DNA of 58,636 nt, taken from contig VGIF01000002.1 of assembly GCA_016868015.1 (NCBI GenBank), forward strand, positions 1 through 58,636, written 5' to 3'. Shown piece after piece: positions 1,904 to 55,659 of this stretch; position 1 is the stretch's first letter, and each line of letters opens with the position of its first letter. A program made the translations under genes and the position numbers. This DNA is from Betaproteobacteria bacterium (lineage in GTDB: Bacteria; Pseudomonadota; Gammaproteobacteria; Burkholderiales; SG8-41). The notes beneath the pieces were generated by a model. It searched no databases, had not been told where the DNA came from, and saw nothing but the letters and a program-made list of their open reading frames with translations.

Positions 1904-1927
1904 AGTTTTATAAAATCAAACACAAGG
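1904..1927 (-). repeat. AT-rich element, weak/partial copy L
   Basis: The reverse strand reads CCTTGTGTTTGATTTTATAAAACT, matching the GT.TTTGATTTTAT core. It lies 12 nt upstream of the Bug gene ATG at 1892. Confidence 0.4.
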
Positions 1928-2160
1928 CTTTGCTGCCTTGGGCCTGCCCACTCATTCAATACCCGCCTGCCCGAAATTTGCCGCCACGCCGCTTTTCAAC
2001 GGCGCCATGTTCACGCGCCGCGGATCGCTGCCGCATGACGCCGCCCGCGGCGCGCGCAGTATATCGCTACCCCGCGCGCGCCGCGGGTGGCGTGTCGCTC
2101 AGGTTGCACGACGGCGCGCCGGTGCAAGCATCAGCGCCATCGGCCCTTTTATGAATAAAT

Positions 2161-2192
2161 CGTAAGTTATTGATTTTATTAATTATTTTATT
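2161..2192 (+). repeat. AT-rich element copy F
   Basis: Reads CGTAAGTTATTGATTTTATTAATTATTTTATT. It overlaps the stop codon of the Bug gene 2188-3153. Confidence 0.75.
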
Positions 2193-3153
2193 CGGCACGC
2201 ACGCCAGTGACTTTGACCACCCGCGCCCACTTGGTCAACTCGCTGCGTAAATGCGCGGCGAGTTGTTCGGGCGTGGTGCCGATCGCTTCGATGCCTTGCG
2301 CGTGCAACCGCTCCTGCATATCGGGCGCGCGCAACGCGCGCAAAAACTCGGCGTTTAATTTCGCGATGATTTCTTTGCGCACGCCGGCGGGCGTGAGGAT
2401 CGCGTACCAAGTCGAGGCTTCGAAACCCGGCAACGCGGCTTCGCTCATCGTCGGCACTTCGGGTAGCGTGGGCGAACGTTTGGCACCGGCGGCGGCCAAC
2501 GCGCGCATGCGCCCCGCCTTGATGTGCGGCAGCGCGCCGGGCATGGTGGGGAACCACAACGACACTTGCCCGCTCATCAAATCCGCGGCAGTTTGTGCAA
2601 TCGCCTTGTACGGCACGTGCAGCAAGTCGATACCCGCTTGCGCGCGGAACATTTCCATCACCAGGTGGCCGGAGCCGCCGCTGCCGGTGGAGGCATAAAC
2701 GATTTTGCCGGGGTTGGCTTTGGCTTGAGCGATCAACTCTTTCACCGATTTCGCCGCGAAACCGGGATGCGCAACGAGCACGTTCTGCACCGCGGCCAGC
2801 AGTGTTACCGGCGCGAAATCGCGCAGCGGGTCGTAGGCGATTTTTGGGTAGAGCGATGCATTCACCACCAGCGCCGGCGGCGACATATAAATCGTGTAGC
2901 CATCGGCGGCGGCGCGCGCGACGATTTCCGCCGCGAGATTGCCGCTGGCACCCGGGCGATTGTCCACCACTACTTGCTGAACGAGGTTCTCCGTCAATCG
3001 TTGCGCAAACAGGCGCGCCAGCAAATCGATGCTGCCACCGGCGCCGAAGCCGACGATCAAGCGGATGAGTTTATCGGGGTACGCTGCGTGCGCCGTCGAA
3101 ACGACAAGGCAACATGCAATCAAAATTTTCAAACAACGCTTAACGGCGCACAC
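2188..3153 (-). CDS. Bug/TctC-family periplasmic solute-binding protein
   Basis: 321-aa ORF with an N-terminal signal sequence and motifs [19 protein letters not shown] and PEVPTMSEA. The exact start is uncertain (GTG at 3153 or TTG at about 3132). Confidence 0.88.
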   Translation of the reverse strand: MCAVKRCLKILIACCLVVSTAHAAYPDKLIRLIVGFGAGGSIDLLARLFAQRLTENLVQQVVVDNRPGASGNLAAEIVARAAADGYTIYMSPPALVVNASLYPKIAYDPLRDFAPVTLLAAVQNVLVAHPGFAAKSVKELIAQAKANPGKIVYASTGSGGSGHLVMEMFRAQAGIDLLHVPYKAIAQTAADLMSGQVSLWFPTMPGALPHIKAGRMRALAAAGAKRSPTLPEVPTMSEAALPGFEASTWYAILTPAGVRKEIIAKLNAEFLRALRAPDMQERLHAQGIEAIGTTPEQLAAHLRSELTKWARVVKVTGVRAE

Positions 3154-4063
3154 CCGGCGTCTCCACTTTTAACCCCTGCGCGCGCCAGGCGAGAAACAGC
3201 TCCAGGTCGAGCAAATCCTGGGAACCCGCCGGCGGCATTTCCGCGCGCACGCCAAAGAAACACGCACGCAGCCGCCGGTGCAACGAACCCAGCGTTTGCC
3301 ACTCCAGACGATACGCCGGGTACGGATTGCCGTGGCCTTGGCTGATGGTGTCGTTTAACAGCTTCCTGCCGAAATTGCGGTCGTGGCAATGCGTGCAGGC
3401 GAGATTGATTTGCCCCTGGCGCGTGTAAAACAAATCGCGGCCACGCTCGAAGTTGCGTCGATTCTGGGGATCGATGGTCACCGCCATCGGCATGCCGCGC
3501 GAGTGCAGGCCCACGTACACCGTGAGCGAAAGTAACTCATCCGATTCGTAACGCAGCGGCTCGGCTTGCTGATGCCGTGTGCGGCAGATGTTGATGCACC
3601 CTTCGACATTAACGAGCCGCGCGCTGCCGGGGTCGACTTTCGGATACTTCGCGGTGACGCCCTTCATGCTCACGCGCGCATCCTGATGACAGCTCGCGCA
3701 GGATTTTCCGCTTTTGCCTGCCGGTGTCGCCCACAGCTTTTCGCCGCGGGTGGCCCACAGCATCGCCGGACTCGCGAAATCATCTTGTTGCAGCCCGCGC
3801 ACTTCGGCGCCGACGAAATCGATGCCAGACTTGAGCGGGTCGGGGCGAAAGGGTTGGGCGGCGTCGGCGGTGGTTACCGCTAAACAAAAAAGCGTGAACG
3901 AGTAAACGAGTAACCGGATGAACGTCCCCCCGCCCCAACCCTCTGCTCGGCTCCAAGTGTGCCCTTGCCCCGCGCGCGTTGCGCGCAATGCAGGGAGCCC
4001 ATTCGCGTAGATACCTATGCCCAGGGAAGAGGGGAACGCCCGGGGTGCTGCCTCACGCCTCAC
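3140..4063 (-). CDS. soxA: SoxA-type diheme cytochrome c (thiosulfate-oxidation complex subunit); maximal ORF given, true start uncertain
   Basis: Two CxxCH motifs (CASCH, CTHCH) plus a C-terminal RLRACFFG cysteine, with overall SoxA-like sequence. The signal-peptide-like stretch FIRLLVYSFTLFCLAVTTADA lies about 48 codons into the ORF with no in-frame ATG/GTG just before it. The maximal ORF starts on a GTG inside a heptamer array. Confidence 0.8.
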   Translation of the reverse strand: MRREAAPRAFPSSLGIGIYANGLPALRATRAGQGHTWSRAEGWGGGTFIRLLVYSFTLFCLAVTTADAAQPFRPDPLKSGIDFVGAEVRGLQQDDFASPAMLWATRGEKLWATPAGKSGKSCASCHQDARVSMKGVTAKYPKVDPGSARLVNVEGCINICRTRHQQAEPLRYESDELLSLTVYVGLHSRGMPMAVTIDPQNRRNFERGRDLFYTRQGQINLACTHCHDRNFGRKLLNDTISQGHGNPYPAYRLEWQTLGSLHRRLRACFFGVRAEMPPAGSQDLLDLELFLAWRAQGLKVETPGVRR

Positions 4064-4078
4064 GCCTCACCCCTCACG
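4051..4078. repeat. Heptamer tandem array CCTCACG x4 (reverse strand CGTGAGG)
   Basis: Reads cctcacg cctcacg cctcacc cctcacg, between the soxZ stop and the soxA 5' region. Confidence 0.85.
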
Positions 4079-4394
4079 TCACTACAATCGCCGCGCTCGC
4101 CGACCCCTTCGCCCCCGCATCATCCACCCAGTCGAGTTCGACCTTGCCGCTATCCTGCGCGACAAAATAAAACTGCAGGTAAGGGTTGGCCGCGATGCCC
4201 GAACCCATTTCCGCGCGGAACACCTCGGCGCCGTTGTAGCGGCACACCAGATTGCTGATGGTGTTTTTGGGAATCACGCGGCCGTTGTTGTCCATGCGAA
4301 AGCCGGTTTCCATCGGGTGCTGTATCGCGATGCGCACTTCGACGAATTCGCCGCGTTTGGCTTGCGCGGGCACCAGTAGGCGGGCGACGGTCAT
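4074..4394 (-). CDS. soxZ: SoxZ thiosulfate-oxidation carrier complex subunit
   Basis: 106-aa ORF with SoxZ-like sequence (AKRGEFVEVRIAIQHPMETGFRMD...NPYLQFYF). It lies directly downstream of the soxY-like gene. Confidence 0.85.
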   Translation of the reverse strand: MTVARLLVPAQAKRGEFVEVRIAIQHPMETGFRMDNNGRVIPKNTISNLVCRYNGAEVFRAEMGSGIAANPYLQFYFVAQDSGKVELDWVDDAGAKGSASAAIVVT

Positions 4395-4404
4395 CGGCCG
4401 TGCC

Positions 4405-4893
4405 TCACGTCGCGTCCAAACACGCGGTCTCGGTGACGATCACGTCCGCCGCCGCCGCCCACAACGAGCCGTCCGACATTTGCGCCACCGCCACCACGTA
4501 TTGCGCGCCCGATAAGCGAATGCGCGTGGTCAGCGCCGCGCGGCCGGTGCCCGGCCCCATGCCGATTTTGGCGATGATCGGGCGCGGGTTTTTTTCGGAG
4601 AACAAATACAGCGTGCGCACGTGATTATCCGGCGTCATAGGGCTTTCAACGCTGACCGTCAACGGCACCAGGTGGCCGTTCTCCGCGAGGTGCGGAATCT
4701 CCAACTTAACCTTGCCTTCATTCACCGGCTTGCCGGCGGCGATGTCCTTTAACACCGGCACCAGTTGCATCAGCGGCAGGCGCTGCGTGGAAGGCATTTG
4801 CGCCAGCGCTGGCGCCGCAGCGGGTAACAGCACACCACCCGCGAGGCTTTTTAACACGCGGCGGCGGGCGATATTTTTACAGCCGGGTTTCAT
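4405..4893 (-). CDS. soxY: SoxY-related sulfur-carrier protein with non-canonical C-terminal arm (TETACLDAT instead of GGCGG)
   Basis: The internal ATG at 4893 gives a Tat-type signal (RRRVLKSLAGG) and overlaps the soxX stop (ATGA). The body is SoxY-like, and a single Cys sits 5 residues from the C-terminus. Confidence 0.75.
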   Translation of the reverse strand: MKPGCKNIARRRVLKSLAGGVLLPAAAPALAQMPSTQRLPLMQLVPVLKDIAAGKPVNEGKVKLEIPHLAENGHLVPLTVSVESPMTPDNHVRTLYLFSEKNPRPIIAKIGMGPGTGRAALTTRIRLSGAQYVVAVAQMSDGSLWAAAADVIVTETACLDAT

Positions 4894-5327
4894 TGCAATG
4901 TGAGCAAATAGGCTATCACATCTTCGATCTGCTCCGCGCTCAGTATCGGCTTGCCGCGCAGGTTTTCCGCCACGCGATTTAAACCGCCGACGCGGTAATA
5001 GGCGGGCATGATGGTGTCTTTGTCGAAATAAAACGGATCGACGATGCGCGCGCGCAGTTGCGCCGCGTTTAATCGCCGCCCCACGCCGGACAACGGCGGC
5101 GCGAGGTTGCCGAAAAAGCGCTCGCCGGTTTCCGGCGCGGCGTGGCACAAAATGCAATTGCTGTCGCGGCTTATCAGGATTTTGCGGCCGCGTTCGGCGT
5201 CAGGCGCGGCGGAGGTGAGCGGCGCGGCGATCTCACCGTCACGCAACGTGTAACGCAACTCGCCGCCGCCGGCGGCGCACCCCGCCAACACGGCAGCGGC
5301 GGCGGCGATGCACACGCGCTGCATCAT
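4890..5327 (-). CDS. soxX: SoxX-type monoheme cytochrome c (lipoprotein signal)
   Basis: 145-aa ORF with an LAGC lipobox, one CxxCH (CILCH), and the SoxX-like motif TIMPAYYR. Confidence 0.75.
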   Translation of the reverse strand: MMQRVCIAAAAAVLAGCAAGGGELRYTLRDGEIAAPLTSAAPDAERGRKILISRDSNCILCHAAPETGERFFGNLAPPLSGVGRRLNAAQLRARIVDPFYFDKDTIMPAYYRVGGLNRVAENLRGKPILSAEQIEDVIAYLLTLQ

Positions 5328-5330
5328 AAT

Positions 5331-5885
5331 CTAAGCGCGCCCTGGAATCCGCCACAAATAAATCGTCGAGCCGCCCACGTTTTGCGTTTTTTCCGGCGTC
5401 CAATCGCCCATGTCAAAGGCGTGCGACACGATGCGCGTGCCGGGCTTTAACTCCTTTTGCAGCTTGGGGCGCAGCTTGATGTTCAAGCGCGTCAACAAAT
5501 ACAGCGTCACCACGGTGGCTTCGCTGATATCGGCCTCGAACAAATCGCCTTCGATGAAGCGCACTTTGTTATCAGCGCCGGTACGCTTGGCCAGCTCGCG
5601 CGCTTCCTGGATGCGCTGCGGATCGATATCGATGCCCACGCCGCGCGCGCCGAATTGCTGCGCGGCGGTGACCACAAAGCGCCCGTCGCCGCAGCCCAGG
5701 TCGTAGACGATGTCCTTGCTGGTCACTTCGGCAAGCTTTAGCATCGCGTTCACGGTTTCGAACGCGGTCGGCACAAAAATTACGTCCGGCGTGCGCTGGG
5801 CAAAAGCATTGAGCGCGCTAAATGACAGCGGCGGCAGCGCGAGCCCGGCGCCCGCCACGGTTTGCAAAAATTTTCGGCGTTGCAT
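5331..5885 (-). CDS. class I SAM-dependent methyltransferase fold protein with Tat-type signal peptide
   Basis: The start at 5885 has the SD GGAGAG. The N-terminus is MQRRKFLQTVAGAGLALPP...AFA, and the SAM motif I DLGCGDGR is present. Only 3 nt separate it from soxX. Confidence 0.75.
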   Translation of the reverse strand: MQRRKFLQTVAGAGLALPPLSFSALNAFAQRTPDVIFVPTAFETVNAMLKLAEVTSKDIVYDLGCGDGRFVVTAAQQFGARGVGIDIDPQRIQEARELAKRTGADNKVRFIEGDLFEADISEATVVTLYLLTRLNIKLRPKLQKELKPGTRIVSHAFDMGDWTPEKTQNVGGSTIYLWRIPGRA

Positions 5886-5931
5886 GATTCTCTCCAGAGT
5901 CAGTTTCCGCGATATTATGCCAAACGGCGCC

Positions 5932-5966
5932 AAAATAAAAAAGTTAATTAAATCAGATACTTACGT
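5932..5966 (-). repeat. AT-rich element copy E
   Basis: The reverse strand reads ACGTAAGTATCTGATTTAATTAACTTTTTTATTTT, in the divergent intergenic region between 5885 and 6186. Confidence 0.75.
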
Positions 5967-6185
5967 TAAATCAACATCATCGGGACGAGGTGGGGCGAAG
6001 CCACTGCGGCGGCGCATCAGGTGAACATCGCGCAAGACGAATGTGAACATGCATGAAACACACAAAACACAGAGGGCGCCAGGGAAAACCCGAAATCGCG
6101 GCTATTGGTTTTGACGCTGCCGCGAGTAACGCGGCGCTACCGGTTTGACGGCTGTGTGACCTTCGAGGCTAAAAGGAAGTTCAAC

Positions 6186-7064
6186 GTGATTCAACTCTGG
6201 TCCATACTCGGTAATTCGCAAAAGCTCGACGGCGGCGCGATGTTCGGCAACGCGCCGCGCGCGCTGTGGTCGCGCTGGGTCGCGCCGGACGAAGATAACC
6301 GCGTGCCGCTGGCGTGCCGTGCGTTGCTTGCCACCGGCATCAACGGCAAACGCGTGTTGTTCGAAACCGGCATCGGCGCGTTTTTCGAGCCCAAGTTGAA
6401 GGAACGCTACGGCGTGGTGGAAGACGAACACGTGCTGCTCGCATCATTGGCGGAAGCGGGCTTCACGCACGAAGACATCGATGCAGTGGTGCTGTCGCAC
6501 CTGCACTTCGATCACGCGGGCGGTTTGCTTGCGCCATGGCAGGCGGGCGTGGCGCCAACATTGTTGTTCCCCAACACAAAGTTTATCGTCGGCCGTGAAT
6601 GCTGGGAACGCGCGTTAAAGCCGCACCCGCGCGACCGCGCATCGTTCATCCCCGAATTGCCGCGGCTGCTGCAAGCCAGCGGCCGGCTGGAAATTATCGA
6701 CGGCGATACCTCGCCCACGCTCGGTACGCTGGTGCGCTTTGAATATAGCCACGGCCACACACCGGGTTTGCTGCTCGCCACCATCGGCGCGCAAAACAAT
6801 CGGGGTGGCATCGTGTTCTGCGCCGATCTTATCCCCGGCCGCCCATGGGTCAACGTGCCCATCACCATGGGCTACGACCGCTACCCCGAATTGCTGATCG
6901 ACGAAAAAACACGTTTTCTCGAAGACAAACTCGCGCGCGGCGTGCGGCTTTTTTTCACGCATGACGCCGAATGCGCGATGGCGTCGGTGACGCGCGCGGG
7001 CAATCAGCGATTTGGCGTGGCCGACGAGGTGGCGCAAATCGCGGGCCTCGCGCTCGCCGCCTGA
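6186..7064 (+). CDS. MBL-fold metallo-hydrolase
   Basis: Carries the HLHFDHAGG motif. The GTG at 6186 is preceded by AAGGAAG; the ORF-track start at 6105 lacks an SD. Confidence 0.8.
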
Positions 7065-7065
7065 G

Positions 7066-7782: not shown

Positions 7783-7805
7783 GCTGCTTGGGAGGGGGGT
7801 AGAGA

Positions 7806-7826
7806 GTGAAGGGTGAAGGGTGAAGG
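7806..7826. repeat. Heptamer tandem array GTGAAGG x3
   Basis: Reads gtgaagg gtgaagg gtgaagg, 24-44 nt upstream of the mtgA start (minus strand). Confidence 0.85.
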
Positions 7827-7880
7827 GTAATCGCCGGTAAACAGGGGAATGCAACGCAAGCGGGTGTTACGCCGCGCAAT

Positions 7881-8702: not shown

Positions 8703-8728
8703 GCGTGAATTGTAGTGCCGGAGAACCG

Positions 8729-9760: not shown

Positions 9761-9884
9761 GGGAGCCGCTATTGTGTCGCCAACCCGCCTGAGATGGCAA
9801 GAAAAACTTTTTGTTTACCGATAGTTACAGAGAACTTTTCAAGTAATTGCGCAAACGCCACGGCAGGTCAGTGAGTACTTCCTT

Positions 9885-13222: not shown

Positions 13223-13323
13223 GATGAAATTTTTCTGAAAGTGAATATCGATTTTAGCAAGGCGCATGCACGCGGCCAGCCGCAAGCGGCCGCGCCGCCA
13301 CTGCGCACACGCTCACAATTTTA

Positions 13324-13357
13324 CATAAGTATTTGATTTTATTGATATTTTTATTTT
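13324..13357 (+). repeat. AT-rich element copy A
   Basis: Reads CATAAGTATTTGATTTTATTGATATTTTTATTTT, in the divergent intergenic region between 13222 and 13420. Confidence 0.85.
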
Positions 13358-13419: not shown

Positions 13420-14343
13420 ATGAAAGCAGCTTACTTCAGCAAACACGGCGGCCCGGAGGTGATGGAATACGGCGAGCGCCCCGACCCGGTCGCCGGCCCC
13501 GGCCAGGTGGTGGTGGACATCCACGCGGCGAGCGTCAACGGCGCGGATTGGAAAGTTCGCGCGGGCACTTACGCCCCTATCGCTGATTTGCCGTACATCC
13601 CGGGGCGGGATTTTTCCGGCGTGGTCGCGGTGCTGGGCGCGGGCGTCTCCGATTTCAAAGTGGGCGATGCGGTATTCGGCGTGTGTGATGTCGGGCAAGA
13701 GCAGGCTTACGCCGAAAAAATCGCGATCAAAGCTTCGATAGTGGCGAAGAAGCCGCCGCAGTTGTCGCACGTTGACGCAGCGGCGCTGGCGCTGATCGGC
13801 CTGACCGCTCTGGTGGCGGTGGAAGACACGATCAAACTCAAAAAAGGCGAGAAAATTCTGGTGCAAGGCGGCGCCGGCGGCGTGGCCAGTTACGCCGTGC
13901 AAGTGGCCAAGCATATCGGCGCGTATGTGGTCAGCACCTGCAGCAAGGCCAACGTCGATTACGTGAAAAAGCTCGGCGCCGATGAGGTGATCGACTACAA
14001 CGCGGTGGATTTCACCCAGGCGGTGTCCGGCTGCGATGCGGTGTTCGACACCGTGGGGGGCGATGTCACCCAGCGCAGCTTCGCGGTGCTAAAGCCCGGC
14101 GGGCGCGCGGCCTTCATCGGCTCCGGCGCCAAGGCGCCGGAGCCGGAACGCAAAGACGTGCAATCACTGCGCCCCAACGTCGGGCGCACCCGTGCACACC
14201 TGGAACGCATCGCCGCGCTTGCGCTCAGCGGCGCGGTGAAAGCGCCGGAAGTGAAATTGTTTTCGCTGGCGCAGGCGGCGGAAGCGCACAAGATCAGCGA
14301 GGGGCGGCATTTTCGAGGGAAGTTAGTGTTTAAGGTACGGTAG
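13420..14343 (+). CDS. zinc-type alcohol dehydrogenase/quinone oxidoreductase (MDR superfamily)
   Basis: The ATG at 13420 has the SD AAGGAG. Motifs include VNGADWKVRAG, GDAVFG and VQGGAGGVASYAVQVAK. Confidence 0.85.
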   Translation: MKAAYFSKHGGPEVMEYGERPDPVAGPGQVVVDIHAASVNGADWKVRAGTYAPIADLPYIPGRDFSGVVAVLGAGVSDFKVGDAVFGVCDVGQEQAYAEKIAIKASIVAKKPPQLSHVDAAALALIGLTALVAVEDTIKLKKGEKILVQGGAGGVASYAVQVAKHIGAYVVSTCSKANVDYVKKLGADEVIDYNAVDFTQAVSGCDAVFDTVGGDVTQRSFAVLKPGGRAAFIGSGAKAPEPERKDVQSLRPNVGRTRAHLERIAALALSGAVKAPEVKLFSLAQAAEAHKISEGRHFRGKLVFKVR

Positions 14344-14359: not shown

Positions 14360-14457
14360 CAACCATCTTGTCGTTCCGGCGCAGGCGGGAACCCATAACA
14401 CCGTAGCACTTGAGACACCCTATGGGTTCCCGCCTGCGCGGGAACGACAGGTTGGTG
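14360..14457. repeat. REP-like composite: two inverted copies of the palindrome GTTCCSGC..GCGGGAAC
   Basis: Reads cttgtcgttccggcgcaggcgggaacccata ... tatgggttcccgcctgcgcgggaacgacagg. It lies in a convergent intergenic region. Confidence 0.85.
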
Positions 14458-20381: not shown

Positions 20382-20414
20382 AAAAAAATATTCAATTAAA
20401 TCACATGCCTACAT
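20382..20414 (-). repeat. AT-rich element copy I (diverged)
   Basis: The reverse strand reads ATGTAGGCATGTGATTTAATTGAATATTTTTTT, in the 390-nt convergent intergenic region. Confidence 0.6.
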
Positions 20415-30888: not shown

Positions 30889-31083
30889 TACAAATCCTCT
30901 GTGTGGTTTGAATCGTAGGCGTGTTTTCGAGTCTAGCACCGCGCGCAATACGGCTGTCCGCATTGCTCATCATTTGGCCCGCCGTTCGCATCTTGTGCTG
31001 TAGGCGCGTAAGATAGTTGCTGTTGACGACCTCCAGCCAGATCTGCGGCCGACCCATGAGGCGCTAGTAGCGAGACTGCCCCC

Positions 31084-31116
31084 AAAAAAATATTTTATAA
31101 AATCAAATACTTACGT
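31084..31116 (-). repeat. AT-rich element copy D
   Basis: The reverse strand reads ACGTAAGTATTTGATTTTATAAAATATTTTTTT. It ends 19 nt upstream of the ACAD ATG at 31136. Confidence 0.85.
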
Positions 31117-31135
31117 TTTACCCAGGAGTAAGCTT

Positions 31136-32365: not shown

Positions 32366-32377
32366 CGAACATAAACC

Positions 32378-32479
32378 TTCACCGCAGAGGCGATAAGACG
32401 CAGAGAACCCCACGCAGAGAACGTCAAACCAAAGGCTTTTCTCTACGCAACCTCTGCGTCTTTGCGCCTCTGCGGTGAG
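32378..32479. repeat. Long imperfect hairpin built from CGCAGAG-type units
   Basis: The left arm is ttcaccgcagaggcgataagacgcagagaaccccacgcagagaa and the right arm is ttctctacgcaacctctgcgtctttgcgcctctgcggtgag. It lies between the two ACAD genes. Confidence 0.85.
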
Positions 32480-33629: not shown

Positions 33630-33675
33630 CTTCGCGGGCGGCAGCGAAAGCAAGACGCCGCGGCATCACCTATTT

Positions 33676-33787
33676 CGTCATTCTGGCGAAGGCCAGAATC
33701 CAGGTCGTAAACCTTCAGTGCGTTGCACTGCAAATTTGCGCTTCGCGTAAGTTACAACCTGGGTTCCGGCTTTCGCTGGAACGACGG
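33676..33787. repeat. REP-like composite of the same class (ATTCTGGCGAAGGCCAGAAT / GTTCCGGCTTTCGCTGGAAC)
   Basis: Reads cgtcattctggcgaaggccagaatccagg ... cctgggttccggctttcgctggaacgacgg. It lies in a convergent intergenic region. Confidence 0.85.
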
Positions 33788-35164: not shown

Positions 35165-35187
35165 GTCTTCATCAGAAGTTTCAATAA

Positions 35188-35213
35188 ATAGCTGATTTTA
35201 TTGAACATTTTTT
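35188..35213 (+). repeat. AT-rich element copy J (5' part diverged)
   Basis: Reads ATAGCTGATTTTATTGAACATTTTTT. It overlaps the amidase stop codon at 35198. Confidence 0.55.
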
Positions 35214-39291: not shown

Positions 39292-39353
39292 GGGGCGCTA
39301 GGGTAGCGCGGTTGGCGCGGCAGGTGAAGCGTGCCGGTGGAAAACCGCGAGAA

Positions 39354-39452
39354 GTTAACAGTAAGCGGTGAACAGTGAACAGAAACAACAGCCCCGCGCT
39401 TCGCTGATTACTGATTACTGTTTACCGTTCACCGTTCACTATTCACTGCCTT
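39354..39452. repeat. Inverted pair of heptamer arrays (GTGAACA-type x5 / CYGTTCA-type x6-7) around a 12-15 nt spacer
   Basis: The left array reads gttaaca gtaagcg gtgaaca gtgaaca gaaacaa. The right array reads ctgatta ctgatta ctgttta ccgttca ccgttca ctattca. It lies between the mpl start and the DMT gene stop. Confidence 0.8.
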
Positions 39453-39456
39453 CAAC

Positions 39457-39813
39457 TCACGCTTTAAAGATGAAGTAAACCGCCCCCAGCAAACAAAGCG
39501 CCGCATACAAATAATTCAGCTTCACCGCCTGCCCCATGTAAAACACCGCGAACGGCACAAACACGGCAAGCGTGATCACTTCCTGAACGATTTTGAGTTG
39601 CGCGAGATTCATCGCGGTGTAACCGATGCGATTCGCCGGCACCTGCAGCAGGTATTCGAACAGCGCGATGCCCCAGCTCACCAGCGCGGCAATCCACCAC
39701 GGCTTGCTGTTGAGATGCTTCAAGTGGCCATACCAAGCGAAAGTCATGAACACGTTTGAGGCGGTCAACATGATTACGCTGATACCAATCGGGTGTTGCG
39801 TGATAAAATTCAT
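39457..39813 (-). CDS. DMT-superfamily small membrane protein (DUF486-like)
   Basis: 118-aa ORF with four hydrophobic segments and FMTFAWYGHLK. Confidence 0.7.
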   Translation of the reverse strand: MNFITQHPIGISVIMLTASNVFMTFAWYGHLKHLNSKPWWIAALVSWGIALFEYLLQVPANRIGYTAMNLAQLKIVQEVITLAVFVPFAVFYMGQAVKLNYLYAALCLLGAVYFIFKA

Positions 39814-39840
39814 AAGTGTTTGTTTTTATTGAATATTTTT
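39811..39840 (+). repeat. AT-rich element copy K
   Basis: Reads CATAAGTGTTTGTTTTTATTGAATATTTTT. Its CAT is the start codon of the DMT gene (39813, minus strand). Confidence 0.65.
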
Positions 39841-39928
39841 GAGCGGCATGCTGCGCCCCCTGGCCTTGCCGCGGGGAGCGTTGAGCGCAAAGTGTACTGT
39901 AGCGCCGCGCCGCGATTAGCGGCGTGCG

Positions 39929-44124: not shown

Positions 44125-44230
44125 GATGCCTCCTGATTGAGCAACGAGAAGTGAACGGCGCGAAACCCGCCGTTGTGATCCATACGCAACCCGTCAATCT
44201 TTGGATGCAAAATCAGATCAATGACCCGCC

Positions 44231-44262
44231 AAAACAATAGTCAATTAAATCAACTGCTTACG
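44231..44262 (-). repeat. AT-rich element copy G
   Basis: The reverse strand reads CGTAAGCAGTTGATTTAATTGACTATTGTTTT. It begins 2 nt after the PhyH stop codon. Confidence 0.7.
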
Positions 44263-44264
44263 AT

Positions 44265-45035
44265 TCATTCCGCCAGCGGCACATCGGGCAGCGACGCCGA
44301 CCGGCTGCCGGCGTCCGGCGGGTTTTGCGCCGCGCGGTAGGTGTGCACCAGCGAAAACTTGGTTTCGCTGGTGTGGTTTTGCGACGCGGCGTGGAACAGC
44401 CGGCAGTGAAAAAACAGCACGTCGCCGGCGTTCAGTTCGGCAAGCACTTGCGTGTTGATGAGCGCGCGATTCGCCTCGACATCATCGCGCAAGAACTGTG
44501 CGGCATCGAGCCGGTCCGCCGCGAAATCCATGCGGTGCGTGCCCGGCAACAGCGATAAACAGCCGTTGCCGCGATGCTCCTGCCCCAGCGCCAGCCACAC
44601 CGAAATCAACTCGGGTTTTGCAAACGCCCAATAGCGGATATCGCGATGCCAGCCGGTGACGCTGCTAAACGCGGGGTGTTTGGTCATGATGCAATTGTGA
44701 TGCGCCTGCGAAAACAGCACGTCGTCGCGCAGCAGTTGCCTTAGCCGCGCCGCGATAAACGGCGACGTCGCCCACTCGCGAAACACCGCATCGCGCGCAT
44801 ACGCCTGCAACAAGCGCCGCACCGTGCGCCCGCCGGGCGCTTCGCGCGACGCGGGCGCGCCGGGGTAGTGCGTGTCGGCTTCATATTCCACTGGCAAGCG
44901 CGGCTGCGCGAGATGGGCTTGCGTCACCACACGCATGCGCTGCAACAGCGCGGGCGCCGCCGCACCGCGCACGATGGCGTAACCGTCGCGCTCGAATCGC
45001 GCCACGTCCTCGACCGCGAATAAAGTTTGATTCAT
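44265..45035 (-). CDS. phytanoyl-CoA dioxygenase (PhyH) family Fe(II)/2OG oxygenase
   Basis: Carries FERDGYAIVRG, WHRDIRYW and LFHAASQN. Its ATG overlaps the upstream stop (ATGA). Confidence 0.8.
   Translation of the reverse strand: MNQTLFAVEDVARFERDGYAIVRGAAAPALLQRMRVVTQAHLAQPRLPVEYEADTHYPGAPASREAPGGRTVRRLLQAYARDAVFREWATSPFIAARLRQLLRDDVLFSQAHHNCIMTKHPAFSSVTGWHRDIRYWAFAKPELISVWLALGQEHRGNGCLSLLPGTHRMDFAADRLDAAQFLRDDVEANRALINTQVLAELNAGDVLFFHCRLFHAASQNHTSETKFSLVHTYRAAQNPPDAGSRSASLPDVPLAE

Positions 45036-45908: not shown

Positions 45909-45919
<11 letters not shown>
45032..45919 (-). CDS. CPBP-family intramembrane glutamic endopeptidase (CAAX protease-like)
   Basis: Multi-TM protein with EELVFRGYL and HLWN...H motifs. 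The ATG at 45919 overlaps the metH 3' end by 11 nt. Confidence 0.75.
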
Positions 45920-49640
<3,721 letters not shown>

Positions 49641-49667
49641 CACGTTCTCCTTTCATTCGAAAAAAGT

Positions 49668-49752
49668 TCGTGAGCGCCGTTGCGGGGTAGGTCGCCGAGC
49701 CTGGCGGATGGGGCTGTAAAGCCAACATCCGTCGCAACGCTCCTCGGCGGCG
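49668..49752 (-). promoter_or_regulatory. SAH (S-adenosylhomocysteine) riboswitch-like leader of metH
   Basis: The minus strand reads CGCCGCCGAGGAGCGUUGCGACGGAUG...CAUCCGCCAGGCUCGGCGAC...CGCAACGGCGCUCACGA. Proposed pairings are P1 GCCGAG/CUCGGC, P2 CGGAUG/CAUCCG, and a 3' tail CGCAAC-GG-CGCUC complementary to GAGCG-UUGCG (pseudoknot). This matches my recollection of the SAH riboswitch consensus (CGAGGAGCGYUGCRAC...CAGGCUCGG...AACGGCGCUCA). Confidence 0.75.
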
Positions 49753-49754
49753 CG

Positions 49755-49760
49755 ATTATA
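49755..49760 (-). promoter_or_regulatory. Candidate -10 box (TATAAT) of the metH promoter
   Basis: A perfect TATAAT on the minus strand lies immediately 5' of the riboswitch-like sequence. The -35 region is not convincing. Confidence 0.45.
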
Positions 49761-49814
49761 CCGGAAGCGCTTTTGTGCCCGCCCAACCGCGGCCGGGCGG
49801 CGCCGATAAATACT

Positions 49815-49847
49815 ACGTAAGTATTTGATTTAATTGATATTTTTATA
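49815..49847 (+). repeat. AT-rich element copy B
   Basis: Reads ACGTAAGTATTTGATTTAATTGATATTTTTATA. It lies between the VIT stop (49870) and the metH promoter/riboswitch. Confidence 0.85.
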
Positions 49848-49869
49848 CATCCGCCATTGCCAATGGAGC

Positions 49870-50907: not shown

Positions 50908-52139
50908 GCCACCTCAACCTTCGGCAACCGCAAATAAACCAGCCACAACGCAAGCCCCGCCAGCGCGATTAACAAGCTACCCAGCGCCAAAAACGCCGCC
51001 GATGCGGCAAACAGCGGCGCCGCGACCGCCGCCACAAAGGCAATGATCAACGACTGCAAGCAGGCCTGCAAGGAGGCCGCCATACCGCGATTGTGCGGGA
51101 ACAGATCTAGCACCATCAACGCCACCGACGGCATGGCAATCGCCATGCCCAGCCCGTACAGCACTTGATGCAGCACCGACCACGGCACCTGCGGGCTAAA
51201 CCACAGGTAGTAGAGGTTGTTATAGACCTGCGCCGCGAACATGAATGCAAACCCCAACCATACGGTGTTGCGCGGCGTTAACTTACCCGCGAGCCGGCCC
51301 GATAGATACGAGCCCGCCATCATGCCCACCACACCACCGACGAAAAGCCACGCAAAACCAAGTTCGCCAAGCCCCAAGTGGCGATAAATAAACGCCGGGG
51401 CGGCCAACACATAAATAAAAAAACCACCGAAGTTGAGTGCTGCCACACACGACAACAACAAAAACCGCCCGTTAAGCCCAACGTGGCGATAAGCCGTCAC
51501 AAGCGGTGCGGGCAAGAAGCGCTGGCGCGCGTGCGGCGGATGCGTCTCCGGCAAAAAGCGCCAGCACACCAGCAACAGTATTGCGCCCACCGCCGCGAGG
51601 AACCAAAAGATCGAGCGCCAACCGAGCCACATTTGCAGCGCACCGCCGATCAAAGGGGCGACCGCCGGCGCGATGGCGAAGATCATCATCACCCGCGACA
51701 TCATGCGCTGCGCATCGGCGCCCTGGTACGCATCGCGCACCACCGCGCGGCTGATCGCGGTACCCGCGCCCGCCACCAAGCCCTGCAGGGCGCGGCCGAT
51801 CAACAGCGCAGTCATGTTCGGCGCCAGCGCGCAGATGATCGAGGCGATCACATAACCGCAAAGCCCGAGCAAAATCACCGGCTTGCGCCCAAACGCATCC
51901 GACAACGCGCCATGAAACAGCATCATGAACGCAAACGGAATCAAATACGCGGTCAACGTCTGCTGCACGATCACTTGCGCCACGCCCATGTCCGCCCCCA
52001 TCGCCGGAAACGAGGGCAAATACGTGTCGATGGAAAACGGCCCGATGGTGGCGAGCGCGGCCAGCAACACGGGGAACAGCGGGTGATAACGGGATGCGGT
52101 GGACAATGCCTTTTTCCAGGCTGGACATCGAGCAACCAT
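50904..52139 (-). CDS. Bcr/CflA-family MFS efflux transporter
   Basis: 12-TM MFS protein with GPFSIDTYLPSFPAM and LSDAFGRKP. The ATG at 52139 has the SD GAGG. Confidence 0.85.
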   Translation of the reverse strand: MVARCPAWKKALSTASRYHPLFPVLLAALATIGPFSIDTYLPSFPAMGADMGVAQVIVQQTLTAYLIPFAFMMLFHGALSDAFGRKPVILLGLCGYVIASIICALAPNMTALLIGRALQGLVAGAGTAISRAVVRDAYQGADAQRMMSRVMMIFAIAPAVAPLIGGALQMWLGWRSIFWFLAAVGAILLLVCWRFLPETHPPHARQRFLPAPLVTAYRHVGLNGRFLLLSCVAALNFGGFFIYVLAAPAFIYRHLGLGELGFAWLFVGGVVGMMAGSYLSGRLAGKLTPRNTVWLGFAFMFAAQVYNNLYYLWFSPQVPWSVLHQVLYGLGMAIAMPSVALMVLDLFPHNRGMAASLQACLQSLIIAFVAAVAAPLFAASAAFLALGSLLIALAGLALWLVYLRLPKVEVA

Positions 52140-52157
52140 TTTACCTCTGGTGCTGTG

Positions 52158-52190
52158 CCCTTCACCCTTCACGCCTCACGCCCCACGCAC
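52158..52190. repeat. Heptamer tandem array (CCCTTCA x2, CGCCTCA, CGCCCCA, CGCACA; reverse strand GTGAAGG/GTGAGGC type)
   Basis: Read directly from the sequence, 19-51 nt upstream of the bcr-like start (minus strand). Confidence 0.8.
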
Positions 52191-52330
52191 ATCAGATCAT
52201 GCGTCACACGCCGATCAGATCGACAGCGAAGATTGGCTCAAAGTACGTTGCCGCAAGTGTGGCCATGAGTGGATCGCGAGCGGGAAGCCCGTTGTGTTAC
52301 CCGCGGGGAAATCGCTGTAGTGGTCGTGGC

Positions 52331-52387
52331 AGGGTACGCATCGCGCACCGTTGCACGGCGGCGACGTGGTGCGCGGTGCGCACCCTA
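52331..52387. repeat. Hairpin repeat of the GGTGCGCACCCTAC type
   Basis: agggtacgcatcgcgcacc and ggtgcgcggtgcgcaccct form a 19-bp stem with 2 mismatches. It lies downstream of the fahA stop. Confidence 0.75.
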
Positions 52388-52478
52388 CACCTCATTCAGC
52401 CTCTCTCACCAATAGCCATGAACAACCAATGAGTCGTTCCCGCCAAACCACTAAACCACCAAACGACAGCGTTATGCG

Positions 52479-53801
52479 TTATTTCGCCGCCACCATCCGC
52501 GCACAACAATCGCCAAATCCGATCGACGCATACCCCGCGCGCCGGCCGTGCGCTCTGAGATAAATATCATCGCCATCCTGCACCCAGCGGCGAATTTCGC
52601 CGTTGGCGAGCGTGATATCTTTGGTGCCGTCGAACGACAACTCGGCGATGCTGCCGTAGTTTTCCGGCGTCGGGCCGCTGATGGTGCCGGAGCCGAAAAT
52701 GTCGCCGGGTTCCAACGCGCAGCCGCCACAAGTGTGGTGCGCCACCATCTGCGCCACCGTCCAATACAAATGCTTGGTGTTACTCACCGCGATGCGTTGC
52801 GGCGGCGCGCCTTTCGCGCGCATGGCTTCGGTGTGGATCAGCACCTCGATTTCCAGATCGAGTTGGCCTTCGCGCTGATCGGCTTCGTCCCACAAATACG
52901 GCAGCGGCTTGGGGTCACCTTCGGGGCGCGCGGGCTGTGCGATACGGAAAGGCGCCAGCGCTTCGGGCGTGACCATCCACGGTGAAATGGTGGTGCCGAA
53001 ATTCTTGGATAAAAACGGCCCCAGCGGCGCCGACTCCCAGCGCTGGATGTCGCGCGCCGACCAGTCATTCAACATGCAAAAGCCGTAGATGTGATCGAAC
53101 GCCTGGCCGGTCGGGATCGGCTCGCCCCACGCGTTGCCCTGGCCCACCCAGATGCCGAATTCGAGTTCGAAATCCATTTTCAAGCATGGGCCGAACGTGG
53201 GCAGTTGTTCGCCGTCGACCACGCGCTGACCATTCGGGCGGCGCACCGGCACGCCGCTCGGCCGCACCGTGGAAGCACGGCTGTGATACGCCACCGGCAC
53301 GTATTTGTAGTTGGGGCTTAACGGCGGATTCGCGCCGCGGCGCTTGCCGCCGTTTTCGGCGTGGGTGATACCGGCGAAAAAATCGGTATACGCGCCGATT
53401 TTCGCCGGCAGATGCAGCGTGCAGTCCGCGGCCTTGTGCAGCAGCTTCGAAGCCAGCGGTTTGGCGCGCGCCGATTCCGCCGTACCCGCGGCGAGCAACG
53501 CCGAGAGTTGTTTACGCAGCGCCGCACGCGGGCCGGCGCCCAGCGCCATCAATTCGTTGAGTGTTGGGTTGCTCGCCGCGCGCGCTGCTTTGTCGGCATC
53601 GCCGGAAACTAATTTCGCGTCACTCGCTGCTTTGAGATCGAACACTTCATCGCCGATGGCCACACCACCGCGCGGTGTGTCGCCGCGCACGCTAAAAATG
53701 CCTAATGGCAAATTCTGAATCGGAAAATCGCCGTGGCCGTTGGCGCTGGTTACCCAGCTTGTGCGTTTGGCGTCGTTCGTTTCATCGAGCAGGATGGCCA
53801 T
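52479..53801 (-). CDS. fahA: fumarylacetoacetase
   Basis: 440-aa ORF with FPIQNLPLGIF, YTDFFAG and GFCMLNDWSARDIQ. Confidence 0.9.
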   Translation of the reverse strand: MAILLDETNDAKRTSWVTSANGHGDFPIQNLPLGIFSVRGDTPRGGVAIGDEVFDLKAASDAKLVSGDADKAARAASNPTLNELMALGAGPRAALRKQLSALLAAGTAESARAKPLASKLLHKAADCTLHLPAKIGAYTDFFAGITHAENGGKRRGANPPLSPNYKYVPVAYHSRASTVRPSGVPVRRPNGQRVVDGEQLPTFGPCLKMDFELEFGIWVGQGNAWGEPIPTGQAFDHIYGFCMLNDWSARDIQRWESAPLGPFLSKNFGTTISPWMVTPEALAPFRIAQPARPEGDPKPLPYLWDEADQREGQLDLEIEVLIHTEAMRAKGAPPQRIAVSNTKHLYWTVAQMVAHHTCGGCALEPGDIFGSGTISGPTPENYGSIAELSFDGTKDITLANGEIRRWVQDGDDIYLRAHGRRAGYASIGFGDCCARMVAAK

Positions 53802-53812
53802 GGTTACCCCTT

Positions 53813-53845
53813 GCGTAAGTATTTGATTTTATTTAATATTTTAAA
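53813..53845 (+). repeat. AT-rich element copy C
   Basis: Reads GCGTAAGTATTTGATTTTATTTAATATTTTAAA. It lies 12 nt upstream of the fahA ATG (53801, minus strand). Confidence 0.85.
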
Positions 53846-53855
53846 CAGAAATTCT

Positions 53856-53955
53856 AAACCTTTTAGCCACGGATTTCACAGATGAACACGGATTAAACCC
53901 CGTGAAAAGATTCGTTTAATCTGTGTCAATCTGCGAAATCCGTGGCGAAGGTTTT
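53856..53955. repeat. Long nested hairpin of the GCCACGGATTTCACAGAT type
   Basis: The outer arms are ccttttagccacggatttcacagat and atctgcgaaatccgtggcgaaggtt. The inner arms are gaacacggattaaac and gtttaatctgtgtc. It lies immediately downstream of the ccmI stop. Confidence 0.85.
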
Positions 53956-53965
53956 TAAAGAGCCC

Positions 53966-55180
53966 TTACTGCACCTCGGTATCGATCACCACCTCGACAC
54001 CCTGCTGAGTATTGTTCACCACCTTGGACACACCCTGCAAATCGCCAGGCTGCACCGTAGCATCGCCGCTTTTGGAAATGCGCGCGCCGACGATGACTTG
54101 CGGCACGCTCGACAAGCGCGTCGCCGGCGACATCGCCAGGCTGTCGTCCAGCGTAAAGCTCAGCGGCAAATCGCTTACTTTTTTGCGCAGAATCGCCAGC
54201 GGCATGCGTGAACCTTGCGCGGTGCGCGCGAATACAAACACAGTGTCGCCCGGCGCGGCCTTCGCCGCGAGCGCGGGGGCCAGGCTAACTTTGCCACTCA
54301 CACCAGCGGCAGCCGCCGCCGCGGGTTGCGCCGCGCCGCCCTTGCCGGCGCGTTCGCGCGCCTCGGTTATGCCCGCCTGCACACCGCGCGCAACTTCGGC
54401 ATCGGCCGGCAAACCGGCGAGCAGTCTTTCCCAGTGTTTGACCGCGTTGGGGTAATCTTTTTTCTCGAAGGCGATGGTGCCCGCCAGCGCCAGCGATTTC
54501 GGATGATCCGGGTCGATCTTCAACGCGCGCATCACCAGCGCTTCGGGTTCGCCCTCGAACGACTGCCCATGCGCCATCGCCAGTGCGTCGGCGTAGTCGG
54601 CGAGCAAATGCGGGTTGTCGGGCACGCGTTGCACCGCCTTGGCGTAAGCGGCAACCGCGTCATCAAAGCGCCCCATCGCGCCATACGCCTTGCCGAGCAT
54701 CACCCAGCCCTGCGGGTCGTCGGGGTTTTGTTTCATACGCTCGGCGAGCTTGCTCACCATCACCTGCACTTGCGCCACGGTGAGGCCCTTGCTCACATCC
54801 GCCGGCACGGGCGCCGGCGCCAGTGCGTGCGGCGTACCCACCACGTAGTAAATCGCCACCGCCAGCAGCGGCACCGCCAGACCGACGGCGATTGCCGGCG
54901 CGCGCCCGCTCGCGCGCGCCGCGCGGGTGGCGGGGGCATGGGTGACGAGGTCATCGAGCAGCCGCTGTTCCAGCTCCAGCCGCGCGCGCTCGTATTGCTC
55001 ATCGGCAATGGTGCCGGCGCGGCGGTCGGCTTCGAGTTCTTGCAGTTGGTCGCGATACACCGCGACGTTTAGCGGCTGAACGGCCACGCTCTCGCGGCAG
55101 CGGGCTTTTAACAGCGGCGGCAGCACAAATCCTAGCGCGGCCGCGATCAGCACCGCCGCGATAATCCCAAACAGGGTCAT
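53966..55180 (-). CDS. ccmI: c-type cytochrome biogenesis protein CcmI (TPR)
   Basis: The membrane N-terminus MTLFGIIAAVLIAAALGFVLPPL is followed by TPR repeats. The start overlaps the ccmH stop (ATGA). Confidence 0.85.
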   Translation of the reverse strand: MTLFGIIAAVLIAAALGFVLPPLLKARCRESVAVQPLNVAVYRDQLQELEADRRAGTIADEQYERARLELEQRLLDDLVTHAPATRAARASGRAPAIAVGLAVPLLAVAIYYVVGTPHALAPAPVPADVSKGLTVAQVQVMVSKLAERMKQNPDDPQGWVMLGKAYGAMGRFDDAVAAYAKAVQRVPDNPHLLADYADALAMAHGQSFEGEPEALVMRALKIDPDHPKSLALAGTIAFEKKDYPNAVKHWERLLAGLPADAEVARGVQAGITEARERAGKGGAAQPAAAAAAGVSGKVSLAPALAAKAAPGDTVFVFARTAQGSRMPLAILRKKVSDLPLSFTLDDSLAMSPATRLSSVPQVIVGARISKSGDATVQPGDLQGVSKVVNNTQQGVEVVIDTEVQ

Positions 55181-55659
55181 GGCAGTTTCGGCTCGCGGCG
55201 TGTGGCGGGTTCACCCAGCAAAGCCGCGGCGCGCGCGCGTTCCTCCGCGCTCAGCACCGGCGCCGCCAACGTTTGCGCGCGGCGGCGCAACCGCATAAAC
55301 AACGCAATCAGCCCCCCCGCGAACAACAACACGGGGCCGAACCACAGCAGCAACGTCGTCGCCTTGAGCGGCGGGCGGTACAACACAAAGTCGCCGTAGC
55401 GCTCGGTCATGAATGCGATCACTTGCCGGTCACTCGCGCCTTGCTCGATCTGCTCGCGCACCTGATTTTTAAGGTCGAGGGCAAGATCGGCATTGGAATC
55501 GGCAAGCGATTGGTTTTGACACACCAGGCAACGCAGCTCGGCCGATAGTTGCTGCACGCGCCGCTCCAGGGCGGCGTCCTGCGCGGCGTGAACCGCTTGC
55601 GCCGCCCCCCAAGCGTAGAATAAAAATATTAATAAAATCCAATGCTTACGTATTTTCAT
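55177..55659 (-). CDS. ccmH: cytochrome c-type biogenesis protein CcmH
   Basis: Carries LRCLVCQNQSLADSNA (CxxC) and a C-terminal TM segment. The ATG at 55659 gives the signal peptide MKIRKHWILLIFLFYAWGAAQAVHA. Confidence 0.88.
   Translation of the reverse strand: MKIRKHWILLIFLFYAWGAAQAVHAAQDAALERRVQQLSAELRCLVCQNQSLADSNADLALDLKNQVREQIEQGASDRQVIAFMTERYGDFVLYRPPLKATTLLLWFGPVLLFAGGLIALFMRLRRRAQTLAAPVLSAEERARAAALLGEPATRREPKLP
55618..55651 (-). repeat. AT-rich element copy H (inside the ccmG/ccmH overlap, coding)
   Basis: The reverse strand reads ACGTAAGCATTGGATTTTATTAATATTTTTATTC. It supplies the ccmG TAA stop and ccmH codons 3-14. Confidence 0.75.

Follow-up and report, generated by a model that had tools for sequence, protein, structure and literature searches.

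A clade-specific family of ~35-bp AT-rich repeats with the predicted anatomy of full-length integration host factor sites in uncultured freshwater Burkholderiales

The canonical binding site of integration host factor (IHF) spans 34 bp and contains four consensus elements, namely, WATCAA, TTR, two AA steps, and a tract of 4 to 6 A residues (PMC1874591). The AA steps are nine bp apart, at the kinks produced by proline intercalation, and the A tract is located in the site's 5′ half (PMC1874591). In Escherichia coli and Salmonella, a consensus IHF site forms part of RIB/RIP, the IHF-binding L linker of BIME-1, a dispersed intergenic repeat situated at the ends of transcription units (Boccard and Prentki 1993, as cited in PMC3333891). 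The Correia elements (NEMIS) of Neisseria are high-copy intergenic repeats of betaproteobacteria, and their 155-bp form carries a functional IHF site (PMC2229807). Here we describe a ~35-bp AT-rich element that recurs in a stretch of 58,636 nucleotides (the window) from contig VGIF01000002.1 of assembly GCA_016868015.1, a member of the Burkholderiales.

A profile built from the clearest copies (nhmmer) detected the element about once per 5 kb of the window, with nine strong copies (E values of ~2e-8 to 2e-6) and two moderate ones (E of ~0.009). The strand assigned to each copy is that on which ACGTAAG... (the F-form) is read. The coordinates and strands matched those of a previous reading made from the letters alone (the sequence-only reading), which had proposed a recurrent element of ~33 bp, and its occurrence in dinucleotide shuffles was close to zero: a 32-mer present three times in the window gave no matches, and the 15-mer core, present nine times, gave 0.5. 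An independent repeat finder recovered the element as the two largest direct-repeat families, D1 (six plus-strand copies) and D2 (five minus-strand copies). Over 32 nt, the pairwise identity among the nine strong copies averaged 78% (range, 62 to 91%), and the 38-bp consensus is AAATACGTAAGTATTTGATTTTATTGATATTTTTATTT. With ~85% A+T over ~35 bp, the element is conspicuous because the G+C content of the window is 59 to 65% throughout. A broader hidden Markov model, built from all the sites of the clade (see below), found no additional copies in the window.

The sequence-only reading had noted an IHF-like core, and the resemblance goes further, since all four canonical elements of the 34-bp IHF site are present. 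Read on the strand ATAAAAATATCAATAAAATCAAATACTTACG, the element consists of an A tract in the 5′ half, TCAAT, the core AATCAA, a 4-bp spacer, and TTA. The TTA, equivalent to TTR, was invariant in the nine strong copies (2.0 bits per position), four bases 3′ of the core. In the consensus, the AA step of TCAAT precedes that of AATCAA by exactly 9 bp (F-form T19, 2.0 bits, and T20, 1.5 bits), and the AAAA(A) tract is likewise conserved (F-form T26 to T29, 1.5 to 2.0 bits). The information profile of the strong copies showed peaks at TTR, at WATC, at the TT/AA step 9 bp off, and at the T/A tract, and its minimum was the 4-bp spacer. The core matched the IHF core consensus perfectly in 6 of the 11 copies and with one mismatch in 4 more, exactly as counted before; the consensus of the copies themselves is AATCAA. 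All six perfect matches to WATCAANNNNTTR in the window fell within copies of the element, while 0.85 were expected from shuffles. Since the conserved positions coincide with the IHF elements, the TTGAT-N4-TTGAT arrangement, previously described as a one-turn direct repeat, would correspond to the pair of kink steps. The conserved span is ~33 to 38 bp, and the four parts together cover ~33 bp, as much DNA as one IHF dimer wraps into a U-turn.

We therefore interpret the copies, with moderate confidence, as a clade-specific dispersed family of full-length, high-affinity predicted IHF sites. The binding of IHF to the copies and the effect of the bend are inferred from their sequence. Each copy would bind one heterodimeric, DNA-bending IHF over ~33 bp and be wrapped into a U-turn, and such sites would have multiplied in this Burkholderiales clade, where they occupy ~40% of the sizeable intergenic gaps. 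There, the bends could shape promoter geometry, as in the metH and P460 upstream regions, or serve as architectural or topological punctuation between transcription units.

The copies and their settings were as follows (neighboring genes from the gene map and Pfam).

2154..2196, plus strand: copy 1, E 3.8e-8, perfect IHF core at 2163-2175; flanked by two TctC/Bug genes that run in the same direction, its T-rich end overlapping the stop codon of gene 2188-3153(-).
5931..5971, minus strand: copy 2, E 1.2e-7, core reading AATCAG, with a single mismatch that still fits WATCAR; divergent gap flanked by the genes for a methyltransferase (-) and a metallo-beta-lactamase-fold protein (+).
13319..13356, plus strand: copy 3, E 1.5e-6, CATAAG variant, perfect core at 13326-13338; divergent gap between a solute-binding-protein gene (-) and a zinc alcohol dehydrogenase gene (+) with its ATG at 13420.
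20382..20411, minus strand: copy 4, E 0.009, degenerate, two core mismatches, repeat family D2; convergent gap with short-chain dehydrogenase genes on both sides.
31081..31120, minus strand: copy 5, E 4.4e-8, perfect core at 31101-31113; divergent gap, ending 20 nt before the ATG of the acyl-CoA dehydrogenase (ACAD) gene 31136(+).
35185..35213, plus strand: copy 6, E 0.009, degenerate, without the CGTAAG end, repeat family D1; convergent gap of 33 bp.
39805..39845, plus strand: copy 7, E 2.4e-6, CATAAG and TTGTTT variant; at the DMT_6 gene 39457-39813(-).
44228..44269, minus strand: copy 8, E 1.8e-8, perfect core at 44248-44260; between PhyH (upstream) and a cytochrome P460/cupredoxin gene, where CGTAAG follows the stop codon of PhyH and 104 nt separate the T-rich end from the ATG of P460.
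49810..49848, plus strand: copy 9, E 2.2e-8, perfect core at 49818-49830; between VIT1 and metH, upstream of a conserved TATAAT and an S-adenosylhomocysteine (SAH) riboswitch, ~45 to 85 bp upstream of the expected transcript start.
53810..53848, plus strand: copy 10, E 5.4e-8, perfect core at 53816-53828; ending 12 nt before the fahA ATG (53801, minus strand).
55617..55656, minus strand: copy 11, E 6.4e-8; ccmG/ccmH junction, inside coding sequence.
1906..1923, minus strand: listed by the sequence-only reading as a weak copy (1904-1927) and dropped here as insignificant (E 5.6, and E 7.7 under the broader model); it has only TTTGATTTTAT in common with the element.

The element is specific to a clade. 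Its carriers were reached through FahA and ACAD homologues of 84 to 88% identity in syntenic loci, and they comprise the metagenome-assembled genomes (MAGs) GCA_043743335.1 (GFS_5817, locus L160) and GCA_031408035.1 together with JGI contigs. GFS_5817 contained 12 perfect cores in 42.5 kb, 9 of which were AT-rich and intergenic. At these nine sites, AATCAA, TTA, and the upstream A run were kept and the spacer was free (GCGC, CTGG, TTAG, and others), a pattern that would be expected under a constraint of IHF-type recognition. Loci at 83 to 84% ACAD identity (L167 and L168) contained no copies. Since synteny upstream of metH is not conserved, loci centered on this gene were used as a negative control: a scan of metagenome contigs provided 80 Burkholderiales loci (1.08 Mb; MetH identity, 65 to 83%), and no copy of the full element was found in them at E < 1. 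A relaxed pattern (TAA-N4-TTGATTT plus an AT-rich tail) was ~15-fold rarer in the control loci than in the clade, and perfect IHF cores amounted to 0.6 per 58.6 kb in 774 kb of control DNA with at least 55% G+C, compared to 6 in the window. Thus, an excess over composition-matched DNA was evident at the level of the clade when GC-rich Burkholderiales relatives were taken as the reference, and the amplification over related genomes was ~10- to 30-fold.

A few sites built in the same way, but with another spacer (CTAAGTCATTGATTTT...), were present in other Burkholderiales metagenome loci, at 518-560 and 884-926 of L085 and at ~6265 of L095; low-copy relatives of the family may exist outside the clade. 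More distant relatives, L087 and L088, showed a conserved CA(C/Y)TAAG-N4-ATGATAAAATTC ~60 nt upstream of metH, an IHF-like or -10-like motif at a place comparable to that of copy 9.

A comparison of orthologous sites, proposed in the sequence-only reading as a check on mobility, gave a twofold result: three sites were kept across lineages, and two copies were lineage specific. In the conserved block ccm-fahA-(MFS)-VIT1-metH-PhyH-P460, three of the four window copies had orthologues in relatives, those upstream of fahA, at the ccmG/ccmH junction, and in the PhyH-P460 spacer, in lineages at 85 to 88% FahA identity. At the fahA site, the core AAAATCAAATA(C/G)TTA was found 14 to 17 nt before the ATG in four related lineages, with an upstream neighbor that varied. 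Copy 11 was kept at the ccmG/ccmH junction in all the relatives compared, and copy 8, orthologous in three lineages, was kept in L160 and L162 in the same orientation, 95 to 125 nt before the ATG. The retained sites preserve core, position, and orientation, and the intergenic sequence around them is no longer alignable, so the cores at the three orthologous sites appear to have been selectively retained. As for the lineage-specific copies, copy 9 lies within a ~50-bp segment that is missing from the otherwise alignable VIT1-metH spacer of L160, where the TATAAT and the SAH riboswitch are intact without the element, and copy 5, upstream of ACAD, was absent in three relatives and degenerate in one. 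The comparison of filled and empty sites comprises one ~50-bp indel and the ACAD absence, in genomes too diverged to fix the boundaries. Given two lineage-specific copies and three kept ones, the family both persists and turns over. In the cycH-fahA spacer of GFS_5817 (L160, 9850-9900), a short tandem run, GGGGAATGGGGAATGGGGAATGAGGAATAGGGAATGG, was observed just upstream of the fahA copy.

The same 19-mer also occurs in other genomes. A scan of one genome per species (596 Gb) for CGTAAGTATTTGATTTWAT gave at least 68 loci, and about half of the matches listed belonged to copies of this element in MAGs of Betaproteobacteria and Burkholderiales. In Alpha-, Gamma-, and Deltaproteobacteria with GC-rich genomes, the 19-mer was found immediately next to the CCA ends of genes for tRNA-Lys, -Phe, -Met, and -Thr or next to partial tRNA 3′ ends (L008, L011, L016, L029, L033, L034, L039, L049, L032, and L069 among the matches listed); at L011 a type I restriction-modification island was next to it, and at L069 it was flanked by an integrase and a primase. 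To judge from these surroundings, the tRNA-adjoining 19-mers are probably att arms of tRNA-targeting integrative elements. On a viral contig, the 19-mer has a tyrosine integrase gene with a tRNA-fragment core on one side and a D5/P4-type primase gene on the other, a position that assigns it to an attP arm. On viral contig L071 (~13485-13509), it stood between arrays of TAGGGCA(T/A)TAA iterons, an arrangement that resembles a replication origin, of a phage or a plasmid, with an IHF-type site at its center. In Thermodesulfobacteriota/Syntrophaceae, it formed the center of a 104-bp multicopy element with 16-nt terminal inverted repeats (MAG loci L007, L017, L038, L048, L050, L054, L056, L058, and L068). 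That element has the repeats GAGTCTGTAGAAAAAG and CTTTTCCTACAGACTC, AAC flanks, and a central 24-mer, CGTAAGTATTTGATTTTATTGATA; its architecture is like that of Correia, in a different phylum. The textbook settings of IHF are three: site-specific recombination, transposition, and iteron origins. By a rough estimate, the occurrences elsewhere would be independent strong IHF sites surfacing in a 596-Gb search.

The agreement with the 104-bp element bears on the possibility that the family is a selfish, nonautonomous mobile or copy-driven sequence without host function, its IHF-like core being inherited from the center of a MITE (miniature inverted-repeat transposable element) or from an att arm and used at most for its own propagation. 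The same 24-mer at the center of an element with terminal inverted repeats in another phylum would fit such an origin, as would the near identity of the copies at positions outside the IHF elements, their patchy distribution among Burkholderiales MAGs, and the gain or loss of copies in the VIT1-metH spacer (the ~50-bp segment) and upstream of ACAD. However, the usual marks of such sequences were not observed. Alignments of the copies showed no terminal inverted repeats, the longest repeats in their flanks (4 to 6 nt) were as at random positions and gave no sign of a target-site duplication, no hairpin was formed, and the window genes that were scanned revealed neither a transposase nor an integrase. 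Moreover, three of the four copies in the syntenic block were kept across lineages, with the IHF positions preferentially conserved. We thus consider this origin unlikely, and it would in any case be compatible with IHF binding rather than exclusive of it.

The element did not correspond to any catalogued family, in line with the sequence-only reading, which had recognized no named element; no match was found among Rfam families or named repeats. Rfam, at the gathering threshold, gave the SAH riboswitch as the sole match in the window, and a tRNA scan of the window gave none. A BLAST search with the consensus in collections of plasmids and phages gave chance AT-rich matches only, and a search of the full-text literature for the element sequence returned only unrelated P22 papers. 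The contention that the element is nonpalindromic and differs from REP/BIME hairpins was borne out: the folding energies (0 to -6.8 kcal/mol) did not fall below those of shuffles, values of 0 kcal/mol being frequent on the A-rich strand, and no flanking palindromic units were seen beside the copies.

A second alternative is a site for another DNA-binding protein, be it an H-NS-like silencer, Fis, Lrp, or a clade-specific global regulator that recognizes the 10-bp-phased TTGAT repeat. The AT richness and the helically phased TTGAT-N4-TTGAT would suit such a protein, C1, G2, and G6 are invariant yet outside the IHF consensus, and the restriction to one clade could mirror that of the protein. Nevertheless, each IHF element has its counterpart in the conserved positions, the TTR with its correct 4-bp spacing among them, and the genes that flank the copies are functionally unrelated. 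A clade-specific regulator cannot be the reader in other classes, where the same 19-mer was found in attP arms, a MITE center, and an iteron origin. Another protein as the main reader seems to us quite unlikely. Particular candidates were also considered and set aside. FNR/CRP half-sites were rejected because TTGAT is repeated directly and not inverted, and a Fur box was rejected for a similarity of only 9/19 and for flanking genes unrelated to iron. The TnsB site of Tn7, with a resemblance of 13/18, was dropped, there being no TGT/ACA termini and no arrays of sites.

The element might instead be a DNA uptake signal, accumulated through uptake bias and recombination like the uptake signal sequence (USS) of Pasteurellaceae or the DNA uptake sequence (DUS) of Neisseriaceae. 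Its high copy number on both strands, its fairly even spacing of ~5 kb, a specific core followed by helically phased AT tracts, and the lack of transposon hallmarks would agree with this, and so would orthologous retention with lineage variants of the letters (TAAG in the window, mostly TAAC in GFS_5817) and an inverted pair at one MAG locus (L057). On the other hand, the density is 5-fold below that of known uptake sequences, and at least one copy is part of a ~50-bp insertion or deletion instead of a product of point mutation; furthermore, the 19-mer is found in att, MITE, and origin contexts of other phyla. We know of no uptake specificity in Burkholderiales, and we regard this explanation as highly improbable.

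The window consists of unremarkable chromosomal DNA from a freshwater population of uncultured Burkholderiales. Several JGI lake metagenomes and one SRA run contain contigs 100% identical to it, and a search for population variants through identical proteins returned only such contigs. Its genes are housekeeping or catabolic, with many TctC/Bug receptors, soxAYZ, aroE, the ccm operon (cytochrome c maturation), fahA, metH behind the SAH riboswitch, and acyl-CoA dehydrogenases. In a GC3-based gene map, 10 of the ~28 intergenic gaps of at least 40 bp contained a copy. Tandem, divergent, and convergent gaps all contained copies, which had either orientation and lay next to genes of unrelated function. 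The placement at gene boundaries claimed by the sequence-only reading held for all copies, with the correction that copy 11, the only coding one, is within the coding sequence of CcmH. Its proposal that the CGTAAG end faces the gene start did not prove to be a rule: in same-direction gaps the orientation was 4:2, with the CTTACG end toward the downstream start in four cases and CGTAAG against the upstream stop in two, and the distance from copy to start codon ranged from 0 to ~270 nt. The placement is thus between genes, without a fixed promoter geometry.

These observations also bear on the idea that the element is a promoter part driving the adjacent gene, either as an UP-element-like A/T block or through a -10-like TAAAAT. 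The latter occurs at a constant position within the element, for seven of the nine strong copies a gene begins no more than 270 nt away on the CTTACG side, and the metH and P460 copies are upstream of likely promoters. Such a role would, however, have to accommodate the spread of start-codon distances, two copies facing a stop codon, and two in convergent gaps. There is no conserved -35 partner, and no sigma-70 promoter or intrinsic terminator was called on any copy in the 39- to 58-kb stretch scanned, nor was a sigma-54 promoter found within range of any copy. In addition, L160 lacks the element at metH and has an intact promoter and riboswitch there. A promoter function is, accordingly, hardly to be expected.

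Some copies have been co-opted by their neighbors, as part of the 5′ leader beside the ribosome-binding site (fahA and ACAD), as a start codon (DMT_6), as a stop codon (ccmG), or as a signal peptide (CcmH). Copy 7, read on the gene strand, ends in CTTATG, which provides the called ATG of the DMT_6 gene. Copy 11 is read in frame as ATG AAA ATA CGT AAG CAT TGG ATT TTA TTA ATA TTT TTA TTC (ATG at 55659-55657), and its translation, MKIRKHWILLIFLF, is the N terminus and signal peptide of CcmH, in a protein with a full CcmH Pfam match. The TAA inside its CGTAAG (55648-55646) is the stop codon of ccmG. In the relatives, the N termini of CcmH, MQIRNYLFLFIILF and similar peptides, are encoded by the same AT-rich sequence.

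The leader positions raise the alternative of a role at the RNA level, in which an unstructured AU-rich leader or intercistronic segment would, within a GC-rich transcriptome, leave ribosome-binding sites accessible, attract ribosomal protein S1, or provide sites for cleavage by RNase E. Folding was weaker than that of shuffles, with the A-rich strand often at 0 kcal/mol, and either orientation would yield AU-rich RNA; the copies at fahA and ACAD end 12 to 20 nt before the starts, a position kept in the fahA orthologues, and the fahA copy comes after a strong palindrome. However, AT richness alone leaves the conserved letters WATCAA..TTR unexplained, many copies are 100 to 270 nt from any start codon or in convergent gaps, and by inspection the CTTACG end had no preferred distance to the ATG in the betaproteobacterial MAG loci. 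A function of this type appears very unlikely as the explanation of the family.

Other features were noted in the window. The SAH riboswitch (Rfam RF01057, 63.5 bits) occupies 49665-49751 (-) in the metH leader, with the TATAAT ahead of it. Two strong local palindromes, with 36-nt arms 92% and 86% complementary, were located at 14362-14456 and 53863-53949, one in a convergent gap and the other between cycH and fahA. Both are REP-like or bidirectional-terminator-like and distinct from the AT-rich element, and that at 14362-14456 includes GTTCCCGCCTGCGCGGGAAC. Visual inspection showed additional palindromes or short repeats, GC rich and intergenic, at 32370-32475, 33655-33700, and 39340-39450 (CACCGCAGAGGCG...CGCCTCTGCGGTG; CGTCATTCTGGCGAAGGCCAGAATCC; and the hairpin GTGAACAG/CTGTTCAC). 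The genome seems to hold several repeat families.

Several points weigh against the interpretation of the copies as IHF sites. Copies in one genome agree at positions that IHF is not known to read (C1, G2, G6, the spacer GTAT, and T16 to T20), and common descent or some copying process is therefore needed besides selection for binding. The 24/24 identity with the center of the deltaproteobacterial MITE-like element is more than the loose IHF consensus predicts and is hard to ascribe to convergence. Some copies are 0 to 20 nt from a start codon or within an operon or coding sequence (fahA in L162, ccmH), where a U-turn would have no obvious regulatory logic, and no sigma-54 promoters are nearby. 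H-NS-like or Fis-like proteins would also be drawn to AT-rich DNA within a GC-rich genome, and TCAATAAAAT fits 8 of the 10 positions of the H-NS nucleation motif.

Taking the predicted IHF sites one step further, we may tentatively envisage a genome-wide punctuation, although we would sooner doubt than assert it. In this scheme, stand-alone IHF sites, copied by a non-transposon-like mechanism, would occupy nearly half of the transcription-unit boundaries and would have been under selection for tens of millions of years; their U-turns would define promoter geometry and the borders of supercoil domains, and the sites would have been co-opted repeatedly (in leaders, start and stop codons, and a signal peptide).

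The binding site itself appears to be the repeat unit, partly kept at orthologous positions. If IHF binds the copies, these MAG lineages would constitute a natural system for studying how the site repertoire of a nucleoid protein expands, as well as the effects of dense, regular DNA U-turns on transcription and chromosome topology in a GC-rich genome. The absence of inverted repeats and duplications raises the question of how an asymmetric 35-bp sequence is copied. The consensus could also be used as a probe for IHF sites and as a marker for this uncultured freshwater clade.

Among other short repeats, those of the REP/REPIN type (associated with RAYT transposases) are, like the element, short (20 to 40 bp for REP), high copy, and intergenic, but REPs are GC-rich imperfect palindromes, whereas the element is AT rich, asymmetric, and unstructured. 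USS and DUS have in common with it a conserved core with phased AT tracts, both orientations, no transposon features, and lineage "dialects"; they differ in that the density of the element is lower and its core is also found in unrelated phyla. The H′ site of lambda attP contains the same four parts in the same order and spacing over ~34 bp, although H′ is a single site in a recombination locus and the element is a genome-wide repeat family with no integrase link in the window.

By analogy, the closest known relatives are the RIB/RIP linkers of BIME-1 and the Correia elements. Like RIB/RIP, the element is a dispersed intergenic repeat with an IHF-type site; however, in RIB/RIP this site is the linker between two inverted REP palindromes, whereas the element stands alone, at a higher density (~1 per 5 kb) and with an unrelated sequence. 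With the Correia elements, whose copies affect neighboring genes, it shares a betaproteobacterial host, an intergenic location, and a high copy number. Those elements are, however, MITEs of 100 to 155 bp with 26-bp terminal inverted repeats and a TA duplication, while the element is ~35 bp long and has neither, and the 104-bp deltaproteobacterial element is the closer Correia analogue. To our knowledge, IHF-binding repeats have been found only within larger mosaic or transposon-like elements, such as BIME-1 linkers and Correia. Since the IHF sites of both RIB/RIP and Correia are embedded in palindromic or inverted-repeat elements, it is the stand-alone form of the predicted site that is new here.

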